Below, one piece after another: positions 31,232 through 60,298 of a stretch of 64,000 nt of DNA. This DNA comes from a virus. Lineage: Duplodnaviria > Caudoviricetes. The stretch lies in IMG/VR virus record IMGVR_UViG_3300036783_000180, positions 64,001 through 128,000 of that record; one strand, 5' to 3'. The position numbers and the translations under genes were made by a program. The notes beneath the pieces are model-generated. The model made no database searches. It was not told the DNA's origin and worked only from the letters and a program-made list of their open reading frames with translations. The number at the start of each line of letters is the position of its first letter. Position 1 is the stretch's first letter.

Positions 31232-31948
31232 GCAAAAACCACACAGGATAATCCCATGTGGTTGATACGGTTCAGTAGATGTTATATTCGTTCAGAATAT
31301 TATTTGTTTTGTATTGAAATTAGTAAAAGTCACGGGCTTTCCACACCACATAACCTTGTGTCGCAATGTATGATCTCACTCTTACATTGCTTTGAAAACA
31401 TGAAATCGAAAAAAACATACGTGAGACATATAGACTTGGAATAGTTTTATGATTTTTATTGTCACAAAAGTTCCGTATACGTCTGTATTACTACGTAAAC
31501 AAAGGCAATCGATATCTGGGGATATACATTTTTATTTGTTTACGCAATGCTTAGTTATCAGTTATCTGGATTCATGACAATCCTCACGCAATTACAAAAG
31601 CAAAAGTCCAGTTGAACAAGTCATGTGTCCATGACTCATATCGTAGAATGGTAGACGACTCATCATTCATTTCACACACTAGTAATATGCAATAAACAAT
31701 GTCTTTTGTAATTACCCTTAAAAGGTCATGATGTGAGTTATCAAATGTATTGATAACTCACATCATGACGGAAACTGTTGGGAGTCAGTTTCCGACTGAT
31801 GATGATAGGCTGTTTCAATTTTACAAAGATAACCTTTTCCGCAAATTACCTTTGAAGCATAAAGATAAATAAAACACATTTTATTTTTTTTACAAACTAA
31901 CTAGTCAAATCGGCTTGTATTTCAAGTCGGCAAGAAGCTAACCTGTTG
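31232..31948 (-). ncRNA. Candidate large structured ncRNA (~715 nt)
   Basis: Promoter TTGCCT-17-TATACT (31983-31955), terminator 31234-31263, no credible ORF, many stems including a perfect 20-bp helix. Confidence 0.55.
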
Positions 31949-31954
31949 AAACAA

Positions 31955-31983
31955 AGTATACTATACAATCAAGTTCAAGGCAA
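31955..31983 (-). promoter_or_regulatory. Sigma-A-type promoter
   Basis: TTGCCT-N17-TATACT. Confidence 0.7.
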
Positions 31984-49474: not shown

Positions 49475-50215
49475 TTACCCTTTTCTTGGTTTCACAATCC
49501 CTTGCTCTCTAGCTTCTTTCAACCAGCTTGGAAATTCGTTTAGGATTTTATCTAGCAGGCCAGAGTAAGGGATATTCTTAATATCTTCTGCTCGGAAGAA
49601 GTTTGCATTATCTATAACACGACCTTCCATGGTATCTAGCTCTTCTAAGAATGGCATTGAGCTTCTACCAATCCCAACAAATTGCCAGAAGATAGGTTTG
49701 TTAGAAATCTCTCTTAGGTATGCTTTCGCTGGTCCGTGGTCATCCCAATGATTTGCACCATCCGTTACAAAGAAAACGAGTGTTGGCAGATCTTTATCAA
49801 AACCATCCGCATTCTTTCTAGCAAACAGTTTCTTGAAGAATCCTTTCTCTTCGTTTTCACTTTCTACTTTCTTCACTACCTCTTTCATAGCTGGTGTATA
49901 CCAAGTACCGCCACTGATTCGTACTTTCTTTAGGAATACATTATTCGTGAAGTTTTCAATGTTACTTTCGTTCGCTTCACCTACGTATTGCACATCGTGA
50001 TTAAATGCAAACACTTCAATTGATTTATTTGCATCCAAATTCATACCAACACCTAGTAAACGCTCAAAAGTTTGCTGCACTGTACCATTACTAAAATCAG
50101 TATCCATAGAAGGTGAAATATCCATTACACCAATCACGTTTGCTAATTCACCGAAAATCTCTTTCTTTACTAATACTACCTTCGCTTCTTTTTGTAAGTT
50201 AACCATATTTGTCAT
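49475..50215 (-). CDS. vWA domain protein (TerF/tellurite-stress type)
   Basis: MDISPSM MIDAS, GGTWY, FVTDG, PIFWQFVGIG, LEELD...R.IDNANFF. Confidence 0.85.
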   Translation of the reverse strand: MTNMVNLQKEAKVVLVKKEIFGELANVIGVMDISPSMDTDFSNGTVQQTFERLLGVGMNLDANKSIEVFAFNHDVQYVGEANESNIENFTNNVFLKKVRISGGTWYTPAMKEVVKKVESENEEKGFFKKLFARKNADGFDKDLPTLVFFVTDGANHWDDHGPAKAYLREISNKPIFWQFVGIGRSSMPFLEELDTMEGRVIDNANFFRAEDIKNIPYSGLLDKILNEFPSWLKEAREQGIVKPRKG

Positions 50216-50220
50216 CTCTC

Positions 50221-51753
50221 CTATTCTCCTTTTACTTCTTCAATTCGGTCTAACCATTTCCAGTTGATCCATGCTTTTCCGCTATCTGGTTCACCGTCTG
50301 TTTCAAAAACTTCAACACCTAAATTACCACCATTTGTTTCTATCACCATACATTTATAATCAACTACATTTTCTTCTAAATCAGTAAACTTAATTTTATA
50401 AGTCTTTCCAATTTCAAAGAATGACATCACTAGTGTCCACGGTTTAATAGATTTAGGTTCTTCCGTTTGCTCTATATGCTCTGATTTCGTGCTGATAGTA
50501 ATTGGCTCTTTTATTTCGATATCAACGATATCTAACTCAGAATCAAATCCAACAACTAATCCTTTTTGCCCTTGTCGTTTTCCAGTTAAAATTGTTGCTT
50601 CTTTGTTTACTATTACTTGTTTCATTTCCATCACTCTCCTTCTAATTCGCCTGTACCTTTACAAACATCACATTCCCAAAAATTCATAGCGCCCCAATCT
50701 AACCCAACACCTTTACCGTCACAACTGTAGCATTTTTTATCTTCTTCTACTTCTTCCACAGCAAGAGTATAACCTTCGATGTCACCATCTTGCTCCATTG
50801 AACGGAAGTAATTGTGTAGAGCATTGTTTACACAATTCTCTACACCTACTATCTCAGTTGATTCATCTTCGTATTGTTTTACATCTACAATTATCTTGAA
50901 TTCTTGCTTCATTCGTTATCATCCTCTCTCACCATATCTTCCACAAAGAACACAGGGAGATTTGCTGATGCTATATCAACCCAACCTCTAAAACCACCAC
51001 CACTTAACAACACACCGTGATTATCCATTCCCAATACTTTTAAATAGTTTTCTGAATCTGCATCTCGTGGTAATACGTCACCAATCTTATACTCATTTAA
51101 CAGGCGACCTTTCTTAGCGAATGCTGCTGCTCGTTTCGCCACCCTAATTTCATTTGGAGTAGCTACGCGCACATCTTTTAGTAACCATTCATTTGTTTGA
51201 CCAGCAATTCCAACTTGAAGTGTCGGAACATCGTCTATGTGATACAATTTTATTACTTCAGATACTTCAAATTCTTTCTCACTTACTACCTTCGTAACCC
51301 AGTCACCAATTTCGATTTCTACATAAAAATCCCATACTTCATGAGGAACTACTTTGAATGCAACATCAGTTTTGAGGTTATTATATTTCATTGAGCCATT
51401 ACTCAAGACAGTTACAAGCTTTCCAATGTCCCTTCTAATAAATTGGTCACCTTGTTTAAAGTGACCAAGCTCTATGCCGCGTAAAATTTCGCCTCTTGTT
51501 AAATTCGTTGTCTTTACTTCGCTCATCTGTCATCATCCTTTTCTAAGTCTTTTCTTGTCATCAGAACACGATTACCTGTGTATTCAGGTATTGCTTTGTC
51601 GCCTTCTTGTCTATGAACCAATACAACACAAACGAAATTACCGTGAGTCTCTTGCAATACTCCGTATATCTTTCTGTTAAGTTGCTTAAAATACGCCTTT
51701 GTTGTTCTTACCTTGTCGCCTGCTTTTAATTCATTCATTTTATCTTCACCCAA
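50221..51753 (-). other. Four hypothetical CDS (SH3/KOW-like and Zn-finger small proteins)
   Basis: Coupled ORFs. Confidence 0.6.
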
Positions 51754-52007
51754 TCATTTGCAGCTATATCACCTTTAGATGGTTGCCATCCTATGTGTAA
51801 TTGATTCGCTGTATCTTTTAATACAAAAGCACCTAAGAAAGTTGGTTCGCCTAGATACTCACCATAACCGTATTTAAGCGCTGCTGAAATTTCATGACCG
51901 CGATGATGATACACAAATTTACCTACAGGCCATTTCTTACGTTTATAAGAAGCTCCTTCTAAACCATAGTTCTGCTGCATATCCTTACGTGCTTCTTTCC
52001 ACTTCAT
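51735..52007 (-). CDS. DUF2829 / Tad2-like anti-defence protein
   Basis: N-terminal M.W.EA...R..W and C-terminal GWQPSKGDIAANDW match the DUF2829 pattern. Confidence 0.65.
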   Translation of the reverse strand: MKWKEARKDMQQNYGLEGASYKRKKWPVGKFVYHHRGHEISAALKYGYGEYLGEPTFLGAFVLKDTANQLHIGWQPSKGDIAANDWVKIK

Positions 52008-55055: not shown

Positions 55056-56351
55056 TCATAGTTCCTTCTTCTTACGTAACTCATATCTAGCACCTCTCCA
55101 TTTCTTACGTCTTTCTTCGGTACTCCGGAACATGAGCATGAAATCATCAGCACTAATAATACGTCTCGGTTTATTATCGATGTAAATAATCCCCATTGTT
55201 TCAAAGCTGTTATCATCGACATAAAATTGTGCTAATACACCACAATACTTCATAACCTCACGACGTTGCTTTACCGTTTCGTTAAGCTGACTTAAATCAT
55301 CTACATCTAATACATCCTCTTTACCTAACATGAAATGGATATAGGCTGAGAAGTGATTCGAAATCATTACGCCATGCTTTGCTTTCTTTATCTTACGTCT
55401 TGGTGCATACCTCATACTCTCATCTCCGCATTTCCTGTTTTTGAATATCGCTCACCGATATCTTCAAATATCGTAAACCCTGCTTTCATACGAGTAGATG
55501 CTTCCATTTTAAACGCCATCGATTTATCATAGAATTTCATGCTCAGTCCATGCAGGTTTCTAATTCCAATCAGCCCACCTTCTTCAACTGGTCGGTCAAA
55601 TATGGTATACAGTCCCGGTGTCCCTGTTCCTACATGATGCACCAATTCATCTAGTGTCATCATGTATTCAGGCTTATCTAGTTTCAGTGCAAGTTCTCTA
55701 GCAAACGATATTCTTTTTTCGTGTGGATTTGTAATTTGGGTATCAGGCATACGAATCATATCCAAGATTAAGCATTGCAATAAACATAACCTTTCATTAT
55801 CATGCATATCATTCAATGGATCCGTCATCTTTTCCAATTGATTTACCGTTTTATATAGTAAATAGTTGTTTAATCCTATATCTCTCGCTTTTCCCAGTTC
55901 CGCATCTGTTACTTCTGTTTGCCAATTGTGAATATCATCAGTCTTCTTAACCGACATATGTATGCGGTTAATGGCAACGTAGCAATCTTCTTGCGTCATT
56001 TCGTTCATCACATGCATTATGTTTTGTAAGTACTGCAAGTCCCTAACAGAACCAAATCCTATTTTATCTGTTTTCTTTAAAGCTCCATCTTGTGTGCCGC
56101 CCATTTTCACTAATTCTACAATTCCTTTTACCTCATTCATTCCGCATTCTCCTTTACGCTATTCTCGCTATTAAACAAGTGAATCCATATCTTTTATCTT
56201 CCTTAACTTCCATCGCATCAAGAGATTTCCTTAAACTCTCGATATCAATAATAGATAAATGGTCGTGGCTATCAATCGCATCGATCGTATTTTCCACGCC
56301 CTCTACAAATTTCACATGTGCCGCTACTATTACAACGAACTTCTTCTCCAT
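55056..56351 (-). other. Three hypothetical CDS (55056, 55412, 56154)
   Basis: First genes of the operon behind promoter 56450. Confidence 0.6.
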
Positions 56352-56449
56352 GACATCACCTCACGAAAAAATTAAACAATATACTCCTGTATATTGTTAT
56401 TACTTTGCTTTTAACATACGACACCGTTCGAGTGCTTTTAACAATTCAT

Positions 56450-56479
56450 ATCATATCATGTTCAAGGAAGTTTTGACAG
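56450..56479 (-). promoter_or_regulatory. Early promoter TTGAACATGA-TATGAT for the long early operon
   Basis: Extended -10 plus conserved element. Confidence 0.65.
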
Positions 56480-56499
56480 TTCGATTCTTTTAAAATGCA

Positions 56500-56664
56500 C
56501 AAAGAAAAGGCGCACTCATAAGAGTACGCCTTTTCTCCAGCAAGAAAGATTAGATTTTAGGAATTAAAATCAATGAATGAAAGTCGATATCTGCCAAAAA
56601 GGTATTACCTTAGCAACAGAATGAAAATCTGTAGACCAGAATTTAAAGCAATTCAACAAGGATT
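56500..56664 (-). ncRNA. sRNA unit 1 (~165 nt)
   Basis: Promoter TTGACT-17-TATACT (56699-56671); terminator 56501-56536. Confidence 0.7.
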
Positions 56665-56702
56665 ACCTTAAGTATACCGATTTGGATTTTATAAGTCAAT
56701 AA

Positions 56703-56812
56703 CGAAAAAGAGCCACGCATAAGCGTAGCTCCTTCCCAACAATTGGAGTATTTCACAATGATTCAAACCGTAACAATTCGACCTTAGAACAGTAACATTG
56801 ATGAATGACAGT
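56703..56812 (-). ncRNA. sRNA unit 2 (~110 nt)
   Basis: TTGAACATGA-TATACT (-10 at 56819-24); terminator 56704-56731. Confidence 0.7.
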
Positions 56813-56993
56813 GACCTAAGTATATCATGTTCAATGTAAAAAGAAAAGACCTAATCGAATTAGGTCTTTTCTGGCGTCAGTTTTGAAACTATTCGGAGTA
56901 TGCAATTCCATAGCACTTGTACTTAAAGGTGGGAAGTCCGACTCTCCTACAAGACAAACTTCTAAAACAGTGACCTAAGTATATCATGTTCAA
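56808..56993 (+). repeat. 27-bp direct repeat ACAGTGACCTAAGTATATCATGTTCAA (56808-56834, 56967-56993)
   Basis: Exact repeat covering the promoter and 5' end of units 2 and 3; a similar ~37-bp pair at 57368 and 57710. Confidence 0.9.
56838..56971 (-). ncRNA. sRNA unit 3 (~135 nt)
   Basis: -10 at 56978-83; terminator 56838-56872. Confidence 0.7.
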
Positions 56994-56996
56994 CGC

Positions 56997-57202
56997 AAAA
57001 AGAAAACACCTAGCTTCCGTTGCTAGGTGTTTTCTGAGACTCAATATGTCTCGTAAAGGGTTGTTGGAGCCTGAAGGCTCACCGGCAATAAGGTTTATAA
57101 TTCAAAAAGGTTGAGAAAAATAAAACTAAAATTGGATTGGTATCAAACATAGACATTGTAGAGACAGATTCATAACAAAAGCAGTTAAGAAAAAGTATCA
57201 GC
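56997..57202 (-). ncRNA. sRNA unit 4 (~205 nt)
   Basis: TTTACA-17-TATAGT (57237-57209); terminator 56997-57035. Confidence 0.7.
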
Positions 57203-57248
57203 ACAATTACTATATCATGTTCAAAGTAGTTTGTAAAGTCAGAACAAT

Positions 57249-57366
57249 AAAAAAGAAGACTATGACCGCAAAGGCATAATCTTCTTCATAAAAAGGTGGT
57301 GTAACAAGCATGACTCATCAAATCTTCAAAAGCTCTCGAAACTAATGAAGGAATATCGCGTTGTGC
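57249..57366 (-). ncRNA. sRNA unit 5 (~118 nt)
   Basis: TTGCAA-17-TATATT (57401-57373); terminator 57249-57286. Confidence 0.7.
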
Positions 57367-57404
57367 ATACATAATATATCATGTTCAAGTTACTTTTGCA
57401 AATA

Positions 57405-57512
57405 GAAAAACTAAAGTCCCTAGCAATCGTGTGCTAGGGACTTTAGTACCCAAAACATATATTAAAAGGATCACCATGGAACAAAAACCACATCTTACAA
57501 CTACAGCTCGTC
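57405..57512 (-). ncRNA. sRNA unit 6 (~108 nt)
   Basis: TTGACT-17-TATTAT with TG extension (57547-57519); terminator 57405-57446. Confidence 0.7.
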
Positions 57513-57550
57513 CTAGTCATAATAACACCTTTCACAAAGTCAGTCAATAT

Positions 57551-57708
57551 AACGTAAGGAACCCTCGGTTTTCCGTGACCGAGGGTTCTAAGTAAGAAAA
57601 ATAAGCTTATAAAAAAAGAAGAAAGGAAAAATTGAACAAGCAACAAGTAATCGCCAACTCGTAATCACACTGTAGAAATCTGCGAAGCTCATAACCAGAA
57701 ATGAGCTT
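57551..57708 (-). ncRNA. sRNA unit 7 (~158 nt)
   Basis: TTGCAA-17-TATATT (57743-57715); GC-rich hairpin 57559-57588 with weak U tract. Confidence 0.65.
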
Positions 57709-57745
57709 GTACATAATATATCATGTTCAAGGAACTTTTGCAAAT

Positions 57746-57881
57746 AAAAAATAACTCCCTTTGGGAGAGGGAGTTATTTTGGGAATCTGAGGGGACTCCC
57801 TAACGCAGTAAAATAGTTACACTACAACCAGCAAGATATCACACCAAGATATCATACACCAATAAGAATTTAACAACCAGT
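57746..57881 (-). ncRNA. sRNA unit 8 (~136 nt)
   Basis: TTGATT-16-TACAAT (57915-57888); terminator 57746-57780. Confidence 0.65.
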
Positions 57882-57911
57882 GCATTTATTGTATCATGTT
57901 CATAGGAAAAA

Positions 57912-60230
57912 TCAAGTAGTTATTTTTGTCCACTTCGGTTCTCCTAAATCAGATACACCAAGTCTCCAGTAACTTCCGTCAGGAGATTGTTGCACGATTC
58001 CTTTTGTTTTATCAGCAATCATGATGTCTCCGTACACCTTGTTATCTGTTTCCGTGCTCATAAACGCAGTACCAATGCCGTCACCACTCGTAGCGAAGAT
58101 TCTATTAACACGAATTCCTTTATTTTCGTTCGTATAACCCCAAATAGTGAACTTTAGTTTATATGTTTTCGGACTACGCGTTGCAACGTGTACAGTAGAT
58201 GCACTATTCTTCGTGACCGTCGAAACATTCGTATATGGATTATCCACTTTTCCAATGACACGTTCGATTTTGATGTCCGTTGGCAGCTCTGACCAAGCAA
58301 ACATAATACCGACAGACTCTAAACTATCCAGTCCATTAGACCCAAAGTCAATTTCGATGATAGCGGGCGTTTCTTTCTTCACATCTACCCATTTACAGAA
58401 CTGTTCTCTCCGCAAGGAGAACATGCTAAAGATATTACCACCCGTTTTCGCTACGCCAAGCGAGTTCACTTTATATCGTTTGTCTGCTCCGACCAATATA
58501 TCGTCTTGATCACCAATCATTAACTTATCACCTGGTAATCTTGGCGTAAAATCAGGTAACTTACTGCCTTCAATATACGGAAGGTAGGCGCGGCCGCCAT
58601 CTTTTGTGCTTGTCATCATCACGCGAGAGATAATCACTGTATTATTCTTTAAGTTACTGCCCCAAAACTTAATCTGAACCTTTGTACATTTGTCAGCGCC
58701 AGCCCAAGCAGCACTAACAGCAATAGCTTGCGAACGATTTTGCTTCGTCCAGTGTACACCACCAACCCATTTGTTCGTAACCGCATCAAACATATCCAGT
58801 TCATAACCTTTTGGCTGACCACCCCAAGGAGATACAACAGATAAGAATGCTGCATACCAGCAAGGTTCTGTAGATAAGTCGATTTCTAACACAACTGGAT
58901 TGTCATACGTTACATTCGTCATATCAAACGTAACACCCTGCTCTGAATCAAACGAGAATAAGTAAGATAACTCACCTTCTTTGATTGGATGCGTACTCGT
59001 TTGCTTAATTGTGAACCCGCGCTGATTACCATTTACCATCCAGTCGTCTTGATTCCCTAAGAAGTTTGGCTTATACGGAATGGAAATCGGGAATGCATTG
59101 ATTCGTTTGTCAGATACGTAGTTATTCGGACTAGGGCAACTATTTAAGTATCCTCTGTCCCACCAAGATTCAGTTAGTTCTGCCGCCATAGCTGATTTCA
59201 CTTCGTTGAACTTACTTGTTTCTGTGAATTCAAAGGCTGGATTCTCTTCATTCATCTTGTGTAAATCCCAGAAGAAGCCGCTAAACCTATTCAGCGCGCT
59301 TTCGCAATAAATCATACGCTTCGTTCCTGCTTCTGCTTGGAGTTGTAATTGCGTAAAGATGTTTCCGCCCACATCACGAGGTATTTCATGCAGTCCTTCT
59401 AAGTATAATCCGTACTCAAAGTTCATTAACGTCACTTGGTGGAAGTGGTTTGCATTCACCCACGAAGGTTTTGTCTTATCTACGATAGATGGATCCACAC
59501 GAAGATGCACACCTTTCCCGATATTCGTCATTGTAATGTTATTAAAGTGAACATTGTTAATGTACGTATCAGGCTTTGTTGCTTCCATCAAGATTCCAGT
59601 ACCTTTCCATCCACTCGTTGCACGTTTCCCTTTAATATTAATGTTCTTTAGCGTATGGCTTTCCTCATAGAACTGGAACATATCTGTCGCATCGAAGTAG
59701 AAACATGCTTTTGTGAAGTCTACATTCATTTGACGTAGATCAACCGTCGCCCCTTTGATTTCTGCTTCAGGTTTCAACTGGAATATATGGTTATCGGCCA
59801 GAGGTTTGATAACTGCATTCGGCGCAAAGTCTAACACAACGCCCCTCGGAACAACAATTGTCTTAGATAATCTATATTCTCCGCCTGGAACGTACAAAGT
59901 TTTAATCGATGCGCCCCCTACTTTATCCATCGCAGTTAAAAAAGCCGATGTTTCATCACCCCTAACAGACATCGGATTAAAATCAAGTATGCTTAAGGCC
60001 CTTTCTGCCACCGTTATCGAAAGAGGTCTTGGAACTGGACCAAGGACTTCTGACGGACCTAAGTTTTTATCCAACAAATCAACTTTTTCCTTCGTTCGAT
60101 CCGCCTCGATTGTGACAGTCTTTAACTTTGCGTCCATTAGGACGCTTTGGGAATCCTCTGATTTCCCAACTTTTTCTTCCACGATATTTTCAATCATCGT
60201 GCGGTCATTTTCTGTATAATGACGTACCAT
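57912..60230 (-). CDS. Beta-helix (pectate-lyase-like) tail spike / depolymerase with C-terminal beta-sandwich domains
   Basis: SILDF...GDETSAF...LYVPGGEYRLS; Asn ladders; two related GDQDD-initiated domains; C-terminal QSPDGSYWRL.VSD.G. Confidence 0.7.
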   Translation of the reverse strand: MVRHYTENDRTMIENIVEEKVGKSEDSQSVLMDAKLKTVTIEADRTKEKVDLLDKNLGPSEVLGPVPRPLSITVAERALSILDFNPMSVRGDETSAFLTAMDKVGGASIKTLYVPGGEYRLSKTIVVPRGVVLDFAPNAVIKPLADNHIFQLKPEAEIKGATVDLRQMNVDFTKACFYFDATDMFQFYEESHTLKNINIKGKRATSGWKGTGILMEATKPDTYINNVHFNNITMTNIGKGVHLRVDPSIVDKTKPSWVNANHFHQVTLMNFEYGLYLEGLHEIPRDVGGNIFTQLQLQAEAGTKRMIYCESALNRFSGFFWDLHKMNEENPAFEFTETSKFNEVKSAMAAELTESWWDRGYLNSCPSPNNYVSDKRINAFPISIPYKPNFLGNQDDWMVNGNQRGFTIKQTSTHPIKEGELSYLFSFDSEQGVTFDMTNVTYDNPVVLEIDLSTEPCWYAAFLSVVSPWGGQPKGYELDMFDAVTNKWVGGVHWTKQNRSQAIAVSAAWAGADKCTKVQIKFWGSNLKNNTVIISRVMMTSTKDGGRAYLPYIEGSKLPDFTPRLPGDKLMIGDQDDILVGADKRYKVNSLGVAKTGGNIFSMFSLRREQFCKWVDVKKETPAIIEIDFGSNGLDSLESVGIMFAWSELPTDIKIERVIGKVDNPYTNVSTVTKNSASTVHVATRSPKTYKLKFTIWGYTNENKGIRVNRIFATSGDGIGTAFMSTETDNKVYGDIMIADKTKGIVQQSPDGSYWRLGVSDLGEPKWTKITT

Positions 60231-60298
60231 ATTTCTCCCTCCCCTCATTTCTATTATACAGAAAAGTTCTGAAATTTCTCAGTCTTTTAAACAAATAA

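Follow-up and report, generated by a model that had tools for sequence, protein, structure and literature searches.

What does a large phage keep in a 1.4-kb stretch without credible open reading frames (ORFs), placed between its late tailspike gene and a run of small early genes on the minus strand? The question is raised by positions 56490–57915 of the DNA analysed here, a stretch of 64,000 nucleotides (the window) that corresponds to bases 64001–128000 of the Caudoviricetes record IMGVR_UViG_3300036783_000180 (175,348 bp, rated complete by CheckV). We identified at this locus an array of eight minus-strand units with a predicted order of transcription from U8 to U1, each composed of a promoter, a body of 65–167 nt and an intrinsic terminator. 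On sequence grounds there is good support for reading the units as early genes of non-coding RNAs that are under selection and arranged as exchangeable cassettes. As to their role, we tentatively favour, at a probability of about 0.4, eight independent early small RNA (sRNA) genes whose products would pair in trans and, for some units, block translation start sites.

Eight units with their own promoters and terminators

Eight promoter-like sites of the sigma-A type are present on the minus strand of the array, most of them with an extended −10 element (TG-n-TATAxT). A simple scan returned six terminator-like sites compared to 1.2 in shuffles, and two more terminator hairpins (U7 and U5) were found by eye and folding. 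The predicted units, and the promoter that follows them, are:

57740–57915, minus strand: U8, promoter TTGATT-16-TACAAT (57915–57888), body about 57881–57781, terminator 57780–57748 followed by a T run
57548–57743, minus strand: U7, promoter TTGCAA-17-TG-n-TATATT (57743–57715), body 57708–57591, hairpin 57590–57559
57402–57547, minus strand: U6, promoter TTGACT-17-TATTAT (57547–57519), body 57512–57448, terminator 57447–57410
57245–57401, minus strand: U5, promoter TTGCAA-17-TG-n-TATATT (57401–57373), body 57366–57291, terminator 57290–57251
56996–57237, minus strand: U4, promoter TTTACA-17-TG-n-TATAGT (57237–57209), body 57202–57036, terminator 57035–57001
56837–56995, minus strand: U3, extended −10 promoter (TG-n-TATACT, 56983–56978), body 56971–56873, terminator 56872–56842
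56703–56836, minus strand: U2, extended −10 promoter (56824–56819), body 56812–56738, terminator 56737–56709
56490–56699, minus strand: U1, promoter TTGACT-17-TATACT (56699–56671), body 56664–56540, terminator 56539–56500
56450–56479, minus strand: ninth promoter, of the same type as in the units, predicted to drive the early operon (65-aa gene 56351–56154 onward)

The array contains six exact copies of the promoter core TTGAACATGATATA, U8 and the early-operon promoter have variants of it, and one further copy in the genome (39332–39319) likewise lies ahead of early genes. Adjacent units meet in repeated terminator/promoter composites of 42–46 nt with 93% identity. Only promoters and terminators repeat; the bodies are mutually unrelated. 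They fold no better than their own shuffles (z −1.7 to +1.5) and thus have no significant predicted structure, and the Rfam 15 covariance models returned no family (best: ncr1015, 28.5 bits versus a gathering score of 60, E = 0.39, on the plus strand over a terminator).

The promoter spacers at 57730, 57388, 57224, 56993, 56834, 56465 and 39332 (all minus strand) are themselves conserved and carry TTGAACATGA before the −10 element, which is unusual for spacers. A phage or host regulator may bind this sequence, or the sequence may be a trace of recent duplication.

Conservation and turnover of the cassettes

Relatives of the locus are syntenic Logan and JGI contigs, reached by protein searches with the neighbouring early genes. 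L008 and L014 carry the whole array, L012 and L013 only its promoter-distal part, and the window served as reference for all divergences. For U1, U2, U5 and U7, the bodies differ by 0–6% (2.7–4% for U2, 0–3.9% for U5, 1.7–5.9% for U7), U1 being the best-conserved unit with 0–1 substitution in 124 nt across the four relatives. Divergence is 2.5–6% for U4 and 8–9% for U3. The body of U6 has changed by 1.5% in L008 and 15% in L014, and that of U8 differs by 8% in L014, whereas in L008 another body has taken its place between the retained promoter and terminator. As the spacers between units (terminator to next −35) are 7–17% and the flanking genes 13–30% diverged, the RNA bodies are the best-kept sequence of the region. 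Compensatory changes occur in the terminator stems of U7, U5 and U2. They include an A-U to G-C change in U7 and two covarying pairs in U2 whose G-U pairs fit the minus strand only; a further one, C-G to U-A, affects an inner hairpin of U4.

This strong conservation goes together with a turnover of whole cassettes, both established by the sequence comparison. In L014, U6 and U5 are separated by an additional cassette of roughly 70 nt (L014:3424–3545), made up of a TTTACA-17-TG-n-TAAGAT promoter, some 50 nt of body and a terminator; the hairpin of this cassette, GATATCC...GGATATC, resembles those of U8 and of the replacement U8 in L008. The more distant L015 (flanks about 66–81% identical) has only two cassettes (L015:4340–4680), which lie at the same position and have bodies unrelated to U1–U8, so that conservation extends to the locus but not to what it contains. 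Gain, loss and replacement of cassettes take place at the repeated terminator/promoter joints. Beyond these contigs, searches of INPHARED with the array gave no match in near or distant mode and no Bacillus phage match at E ≤ 10, and pattern scans of IMG/VR and JGI metagenomes (promoter pair; a 25-mer of U1) found nothing.

Such joints raise the possibility that the units have no function in trans and are cassettes similar to the promoter-early stem-loops (PeSLs), the composite terminator/promoter cassettes described for T4-type phages (PMC2839356, PMC4122927). Their main roles would then be to insulate the late tailspike transcript from the early operon, to feed read-through into the latter and to serve as recombination joints. 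The near-identical composites, the exchange of cassettes exactly at them and the use of the same promoter type by the early operon are all in line with this. However, functionless cargo is not expected to be better conserved than the spacers and genes around it, and PeSL cassettes carry ORFs while the array units have none. We therefore consider this explanation unlikely.

In all four close relatives a 68-aa gene lies between the array and the 65-aa gene (L008:3164–3370). It is deleted in the window (56347–56361), where the 65-aa gene now begins at the former start site.

Absence of coding

No conserved ORF was found on either strand of the bodies, in the window or in the relatives, and no minus-strand ORF in the array is preceded by a Shine-Dalgarno (SD) sequence. 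The sole sizeable minus-strand frame (U7, 34 aa) is frameshifted in L008. On the plus strand there are mini-frames of 32, 9, 11, 39 and 10 aa. An indel shifts the 32-aa frame of U1 in L012, and 2 nt have been added to the frame of U5 in L014. Systematic plus-strand promoters were not found in the array. Because the frames are broken by indels and lack such promoters, translation of the plus-strand frames is unlikely, as the earlier note had already judged.

The same frames bear on a type I toxin-antitoxin layout, in which the plus-strand mini-frames would be translated and the minus-strand RNAs would be their cis-antisense regulators. An SD sequence and start codon are indeed present on the plus strand of five bodies, and the minus-strand RNAs are perfectly complementary to the frames, albeit by construction. 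But the encoded peptides are not hydrophobic, plus-strand promoters in register are absent, and the frames are not conserved: besides the indels in U1 and U5, the ATG of U6 is lost in L014. Neither the U1 nor the U6 frame matched Pfam, and a search of 1.84 billion proteins with the 32-aa U1 frame returned two weak internal matches of low identity and no N-terminal homologue. With frames neither hydrophobic, promoted nor conserved, the toxin-antitoxin reading fails and we regard it as hardly credible.

Start-site-like patterns on the complementary strand

The earlier note had proposed that the sRNAs are antisense guides against translation-initiation regions, since the complement of five units reads as SD, spacer, start codon and a few codons. 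All strings it quoted, including the anti-SD tracts of U3 and U8, are present at their plus-strand positions:

56559–56584, plus strand: complement of U1, AGGA (56559)-N10-ATG (56573) AAT GAA AGT; acceptable spacing
56745–56778, plus strand: complement of U2, GGAG (56745)-N9-ATG (56758) ATT CAA ACC GTA ACA ATT; realistic spacing
57291–57324, plus strand: complement of U5, AAAAGGTGGT (57291)-N9-ATG (57310) ACT CAT CAA ATC; realistic spacing
57464–57487, plus strand: complement of U6, AAAAGGA (57464)-N5-ATG (57476) GAA CAA AAA; N5 is rare in real starts (3%)
57621–57646, plus strand: complement of U7, GAAAGGA (57621)-N4-TTG (57632) AAC AAG CAA CAA; N4 is rare (2%)
56926, plus strand: complement of the anti-SD tract of U3, AAAGGTGGG
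57789, plus strand: complement of the anti-SD tract of U8, GAGGGG

The five motifs lie, as had been noted, close to the terminator, namely in the 3' part of the minus-strand RNA and 8–35 nt from the terminator stem, and they are mostly unpaired (predicted unpaired probability 0.46–0.70). The SD energy of the U5 complement is −11.7. In three relatives the spacer of the U1 complement is N9, and the U7 motif is invariant in L008 and L014. U3 carries CCCACCTTT in its body but no start-codon complement. In U8, GAGGGG adjoins the terminator and the pattern stands beside or inside it; a GATATC...GATATC hairpin occupies 57835–57860. The complement of U4 lacks an SD-plus-start pattern altogether.

Chance expectations were derived post hoc, using a permissive plus-strand pattern (AGGA, GGAG, GAGG or GGTG, N4–10, then ATG, GTG or TTG) and dinucleotide shuffles as null. 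The pattern occurs in 5/8 bodies versus 1.44 ± 1.02 in shuffles (P = 0.006) and in 6/8 whole units versus 1.88 (P = 0.002); its frequency in internal 140-nt gene windows of the genome is 17% in antisense and 36% in sense orientation. An energy-based SD test gave P values of 0.02–0.2, the minus strand scoring about the same. In real starts of the phage and of a B. cereus megaplasmid, the distance from AGGA to the start codon is 7–11 nt in 71% of cases and 4 or 5 nt in only 2–3%, which makes U7 (N4) and U6 (N5) atypical.

Search for pairing targets

Pairing was evaluated against 246 phage starts, 307 starts on 400 kb of the B. cereus megaplasmid NZ_CP085502.1 and 144 starts of related phages and a prophage, using the last 40 nt before each terminator; full bodies were also scanned against the phage starts. 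Mean binding to the 246 phage starts was better than that of own shuffles only for U5 (z = −4.0) and U2 (z = −3.4). None of the units had an outstanding best target in this set, which agrees with the earlier observation that the motifs match no gene start in the window: no phage start pairs beyond background. On the megaplasmid starts, mean binding of U5 and U8 equals that of true antisense copies of starts, U8 being no better than its own shuffles, and U6 and U2 are within one standard deviation of such copies. The behaviour expected of a true anti-start-site sequence is thus seen in U5 only and, less so and approximately, in U2 and U6; nothing singles out start sites for U1, U3, U4 and U7.

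The best match overall was that of U5 to the start of a BceB-like ABC permease gene (FHQ13_RS28535; −30.4 kcal/mol), with 1 of 100 shuffles as good. It was rejected as a specific target, as on the same start set an equal score is reached by 9% of sequences that are antisense to unrelated real starts of the phage, and the pairing of U2 with L009:6354 was rejected likewise as a generic anti-start-site effect. The 144 related-phage and prophage starts revealed nothing beyond this generic effect. By blastn-short, matches of the units to the phage genome did not exceed 14 nt in either sense. Bacillus matches in PLSDB at E ≤ 10 were confined to the terminator of U1, and short U5 and U2 queries gave chance-level matches only (one of 21/23 at E = 7).

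Based on the lack of significant predicted structure in the bodies, the pyrimidine tracts before the terminators and the start-likeness of U5, U2 and U6, we favour pairing with mRNAs at or near ribosome-binding sites and infer the following course of events. Each unit would be transcribed separately and early from a strong host-type (sigma-A, extended −10) promoter. The RNAs would pair in trans, with contacts made by their pyrimidine-rich, single-stranded 3' regions. In the case of U5, probably also of U2 and U6 and possibly of U1 and U7, pairing would take place at the SD and start-codon region of an mRNA and block ribosome binding. The targets would lie outside the phage, in the host or in other elements. 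Blocking of translation starts is plausible for a minority of the units.

Several observations weigh against this reading. Under realistic spacing only U1, U2 and U5 qualify (3/8 versus 1.18 ± 0.96, P = 0.08). The strings pointed out by the earlier note are real, but their pattern exceeds chance only modestly. The motifs are kept in the relatives except for the U6 ATG complement, lost in L014, and only one of four independent cassettes of the relatives has the pattern in its body. U1, U3, U4 and U7 bind starts 1.5–1.9 standard deviations more weakly than true antisense copies and no better than shuffles. A scan of 185,579 species genomes for an exact 24-mer of the U5 site gave no match, and no specific target emerged among the phage, megaplasmid, related-phage and prophage starts or in PLSDB and INPHARED. 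Finally, conservation of an entire body rather than of a seed is unusual for trans-acting sRNAs. The bodies are conserved over their full length and not in a seed only, a weak argument as the relatives are close. Of the proposal that the units are trans-acting silencers, the part that stands is that non-coding bodies without significant predicted structure make base-pairing in trans reasonable; no start in the sets searched pairs beyond background.

Some of these points also fit real RNAs that serve as decoys or sponges, either for a host protein (a defence sensor, nuclease or RNA-binding protein) or for host small RNAs, with the SD-plus-start strings being by-products of pyrimidine-rich bodies. 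Conservation of entire bodies, most pronounced in U1, and the weakness of the pattern under realistic spacing argue for decoys. So do strong promoters, which imply high abundance, the location of the array in front of early genes that include a Tad2-like one, and the recurrence of the GATATC...GATATC hairpin in U8, its L008 replacement and the extra L014 cassette. On the other hand, a single shared protein partner is unlikely given that the bodies are mutually unrelated and without significant predicted structure, and they resemble neither ToxI nor CRISPR repeats nor a family in Rfam. We regard decoys as somewhat unlikely.

The RNAs might also pair at sites other than starts, for instance within coding regions, at 3' ends or with host sRNAs or tRNAs; the start-likeness of U5, U2 and U6 would then be incidental. 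Bodies that lack significant predicted structure and are conserved over their full length would suit this, as would the fact that only a minority of the units resemble antisense of starts. Against it, the phage genome contains no complementarity of at least 15 nt, and the Bacillus matches in PLSDB and INPHARED consist of terminator look-alikes and the one chance-level match mentioned above. We hold pairing at other sites to be improbable.

Start-site pairing may also be extended to an RNA-only counter-defence arsenal, in which antisense RNAs made within minutes of infection would each silence the start site of a different host-defence or rival-element gene and cassettes would be swapped at the joints to match hosts. 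We deem an arsenal of this kind quite improbable.

Host and genomic setting

The most likely host belongs to the B. cereus group. The tailspike (57912–60248, minus strand) is 65% identical to that of the B. cereus phages B4 and Spock; phage B4 was inspected and has no comparable array next to its tailspike gene. Nucleotide relatives among isolated phages in INPHARED are almost absent, with one 150-nt SSB match in 25 kb. It thus seems to belong to a lineage of large B. cereus-group phages that has not been described before and whose other known representatives are all Logan and JGI contigs.

The early run downstream of the array encodes a protein with a Tad2-like (Thoeris anti-defence 2) domain (51735–52007, minus strand) and a vWA-TerF-like protein (49475–50215, minus strand). 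Given these genes behind it, a part of the array in host takeover or counter-defence is plausible.

The 5' leader of the early operon (56442–56352) is 3–4% diverged, compared to 13–30% for the coding sequence that follows. An SD-like AGGAG is displayed in the loop of a hairpin within this leader, AACAATATAC-AGGAG-TATATTGTT, and the leader may have a regulatory role.

Similar cassettes were not found in other long gaps of the genome (132416–133353 and 1–1531). The former, which lies outside the window, is a gene-free gap of 938 nt with several promoter-like sites on both strands and no cassette structure. A further gap of 530 nt without genes is located at 31445–31974. Long ROOL/GOLLD-like RNAs are expressed by Kayvirus phages (PMC10383478).

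Comparison with known systems

To our knowledge, very little is known of what the small RNAs of virulent phages do, particularly where the host is Gram-positive. Neither Bacillus nor Gram-positive hosts are mentioned in a review on phage sRNAs from 2025 (PMC12197685). Eight separately promoted RNA genes that are better kept than the neighbouring proteins and exchanged as cassettes point to selected early RNA functions. Start-site silencing of a host or rival gene by just one of the units would suffice to make the array a simple model for RNA-based host takeover or counter-defence; the array would also supply Bacillus with a natural collection of compact parts, each a strong promoter with its RNA and terminator.

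Trans-encoded sRNAs of Firmicutes, such as RoxS/RsaE, FsrA and the hairpins of S. aureus RNAIII, block ribosome binding via C/U-rich single-stranded motifs. Like these, the array units have their own promoter, an intrinsic terminator and no ORF, and some carry a pyrimidine tract complementary to the SD sequence that is predicted to be exposed (CACCACCUUU in U5, CCCACCUUU in U3 and UCCUUUC in U7). They differ in being phage-borne, in forming eight different tandem genes, in lacking any sequence or Rfam relation and in having a start-codon complement in some units only.

Among phage RNAs, the c4 antisense RNA of P1/P7 binds around the ribosome-binding site of the ant mRNA (PMC12197685), and the array RNAs are likewise proposed to block translation at ribosome-binding sites. 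The target of c4 is encoded in the same phage operon, whereas the array RNAs pair with no phage start beyond background, and c4 is processed from a longer transcript, whereas the array consists of separate genes. Type III antitoxins (ToxI-like) and CRISPR or RNA anti-CRISPR repeats were dismissed, as the array has no tandem copies of one short repeat; it also had no match in PLSDB to Bacillus plasmids carrying ToxIN.

With the PeSL cassettes the array shares repeated joints of terminator and early promoter, a variable early region and turnover between close relatives at the joints. The cargo of PeSLs is small ORFs and that of the array conserved non-coding bodies, and phage lineage and the Gram-positive host differ as well. 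We see the array as a new variation on two known themes, phage sRNAs on the one hand and terminator/promoter cassettes on the other.

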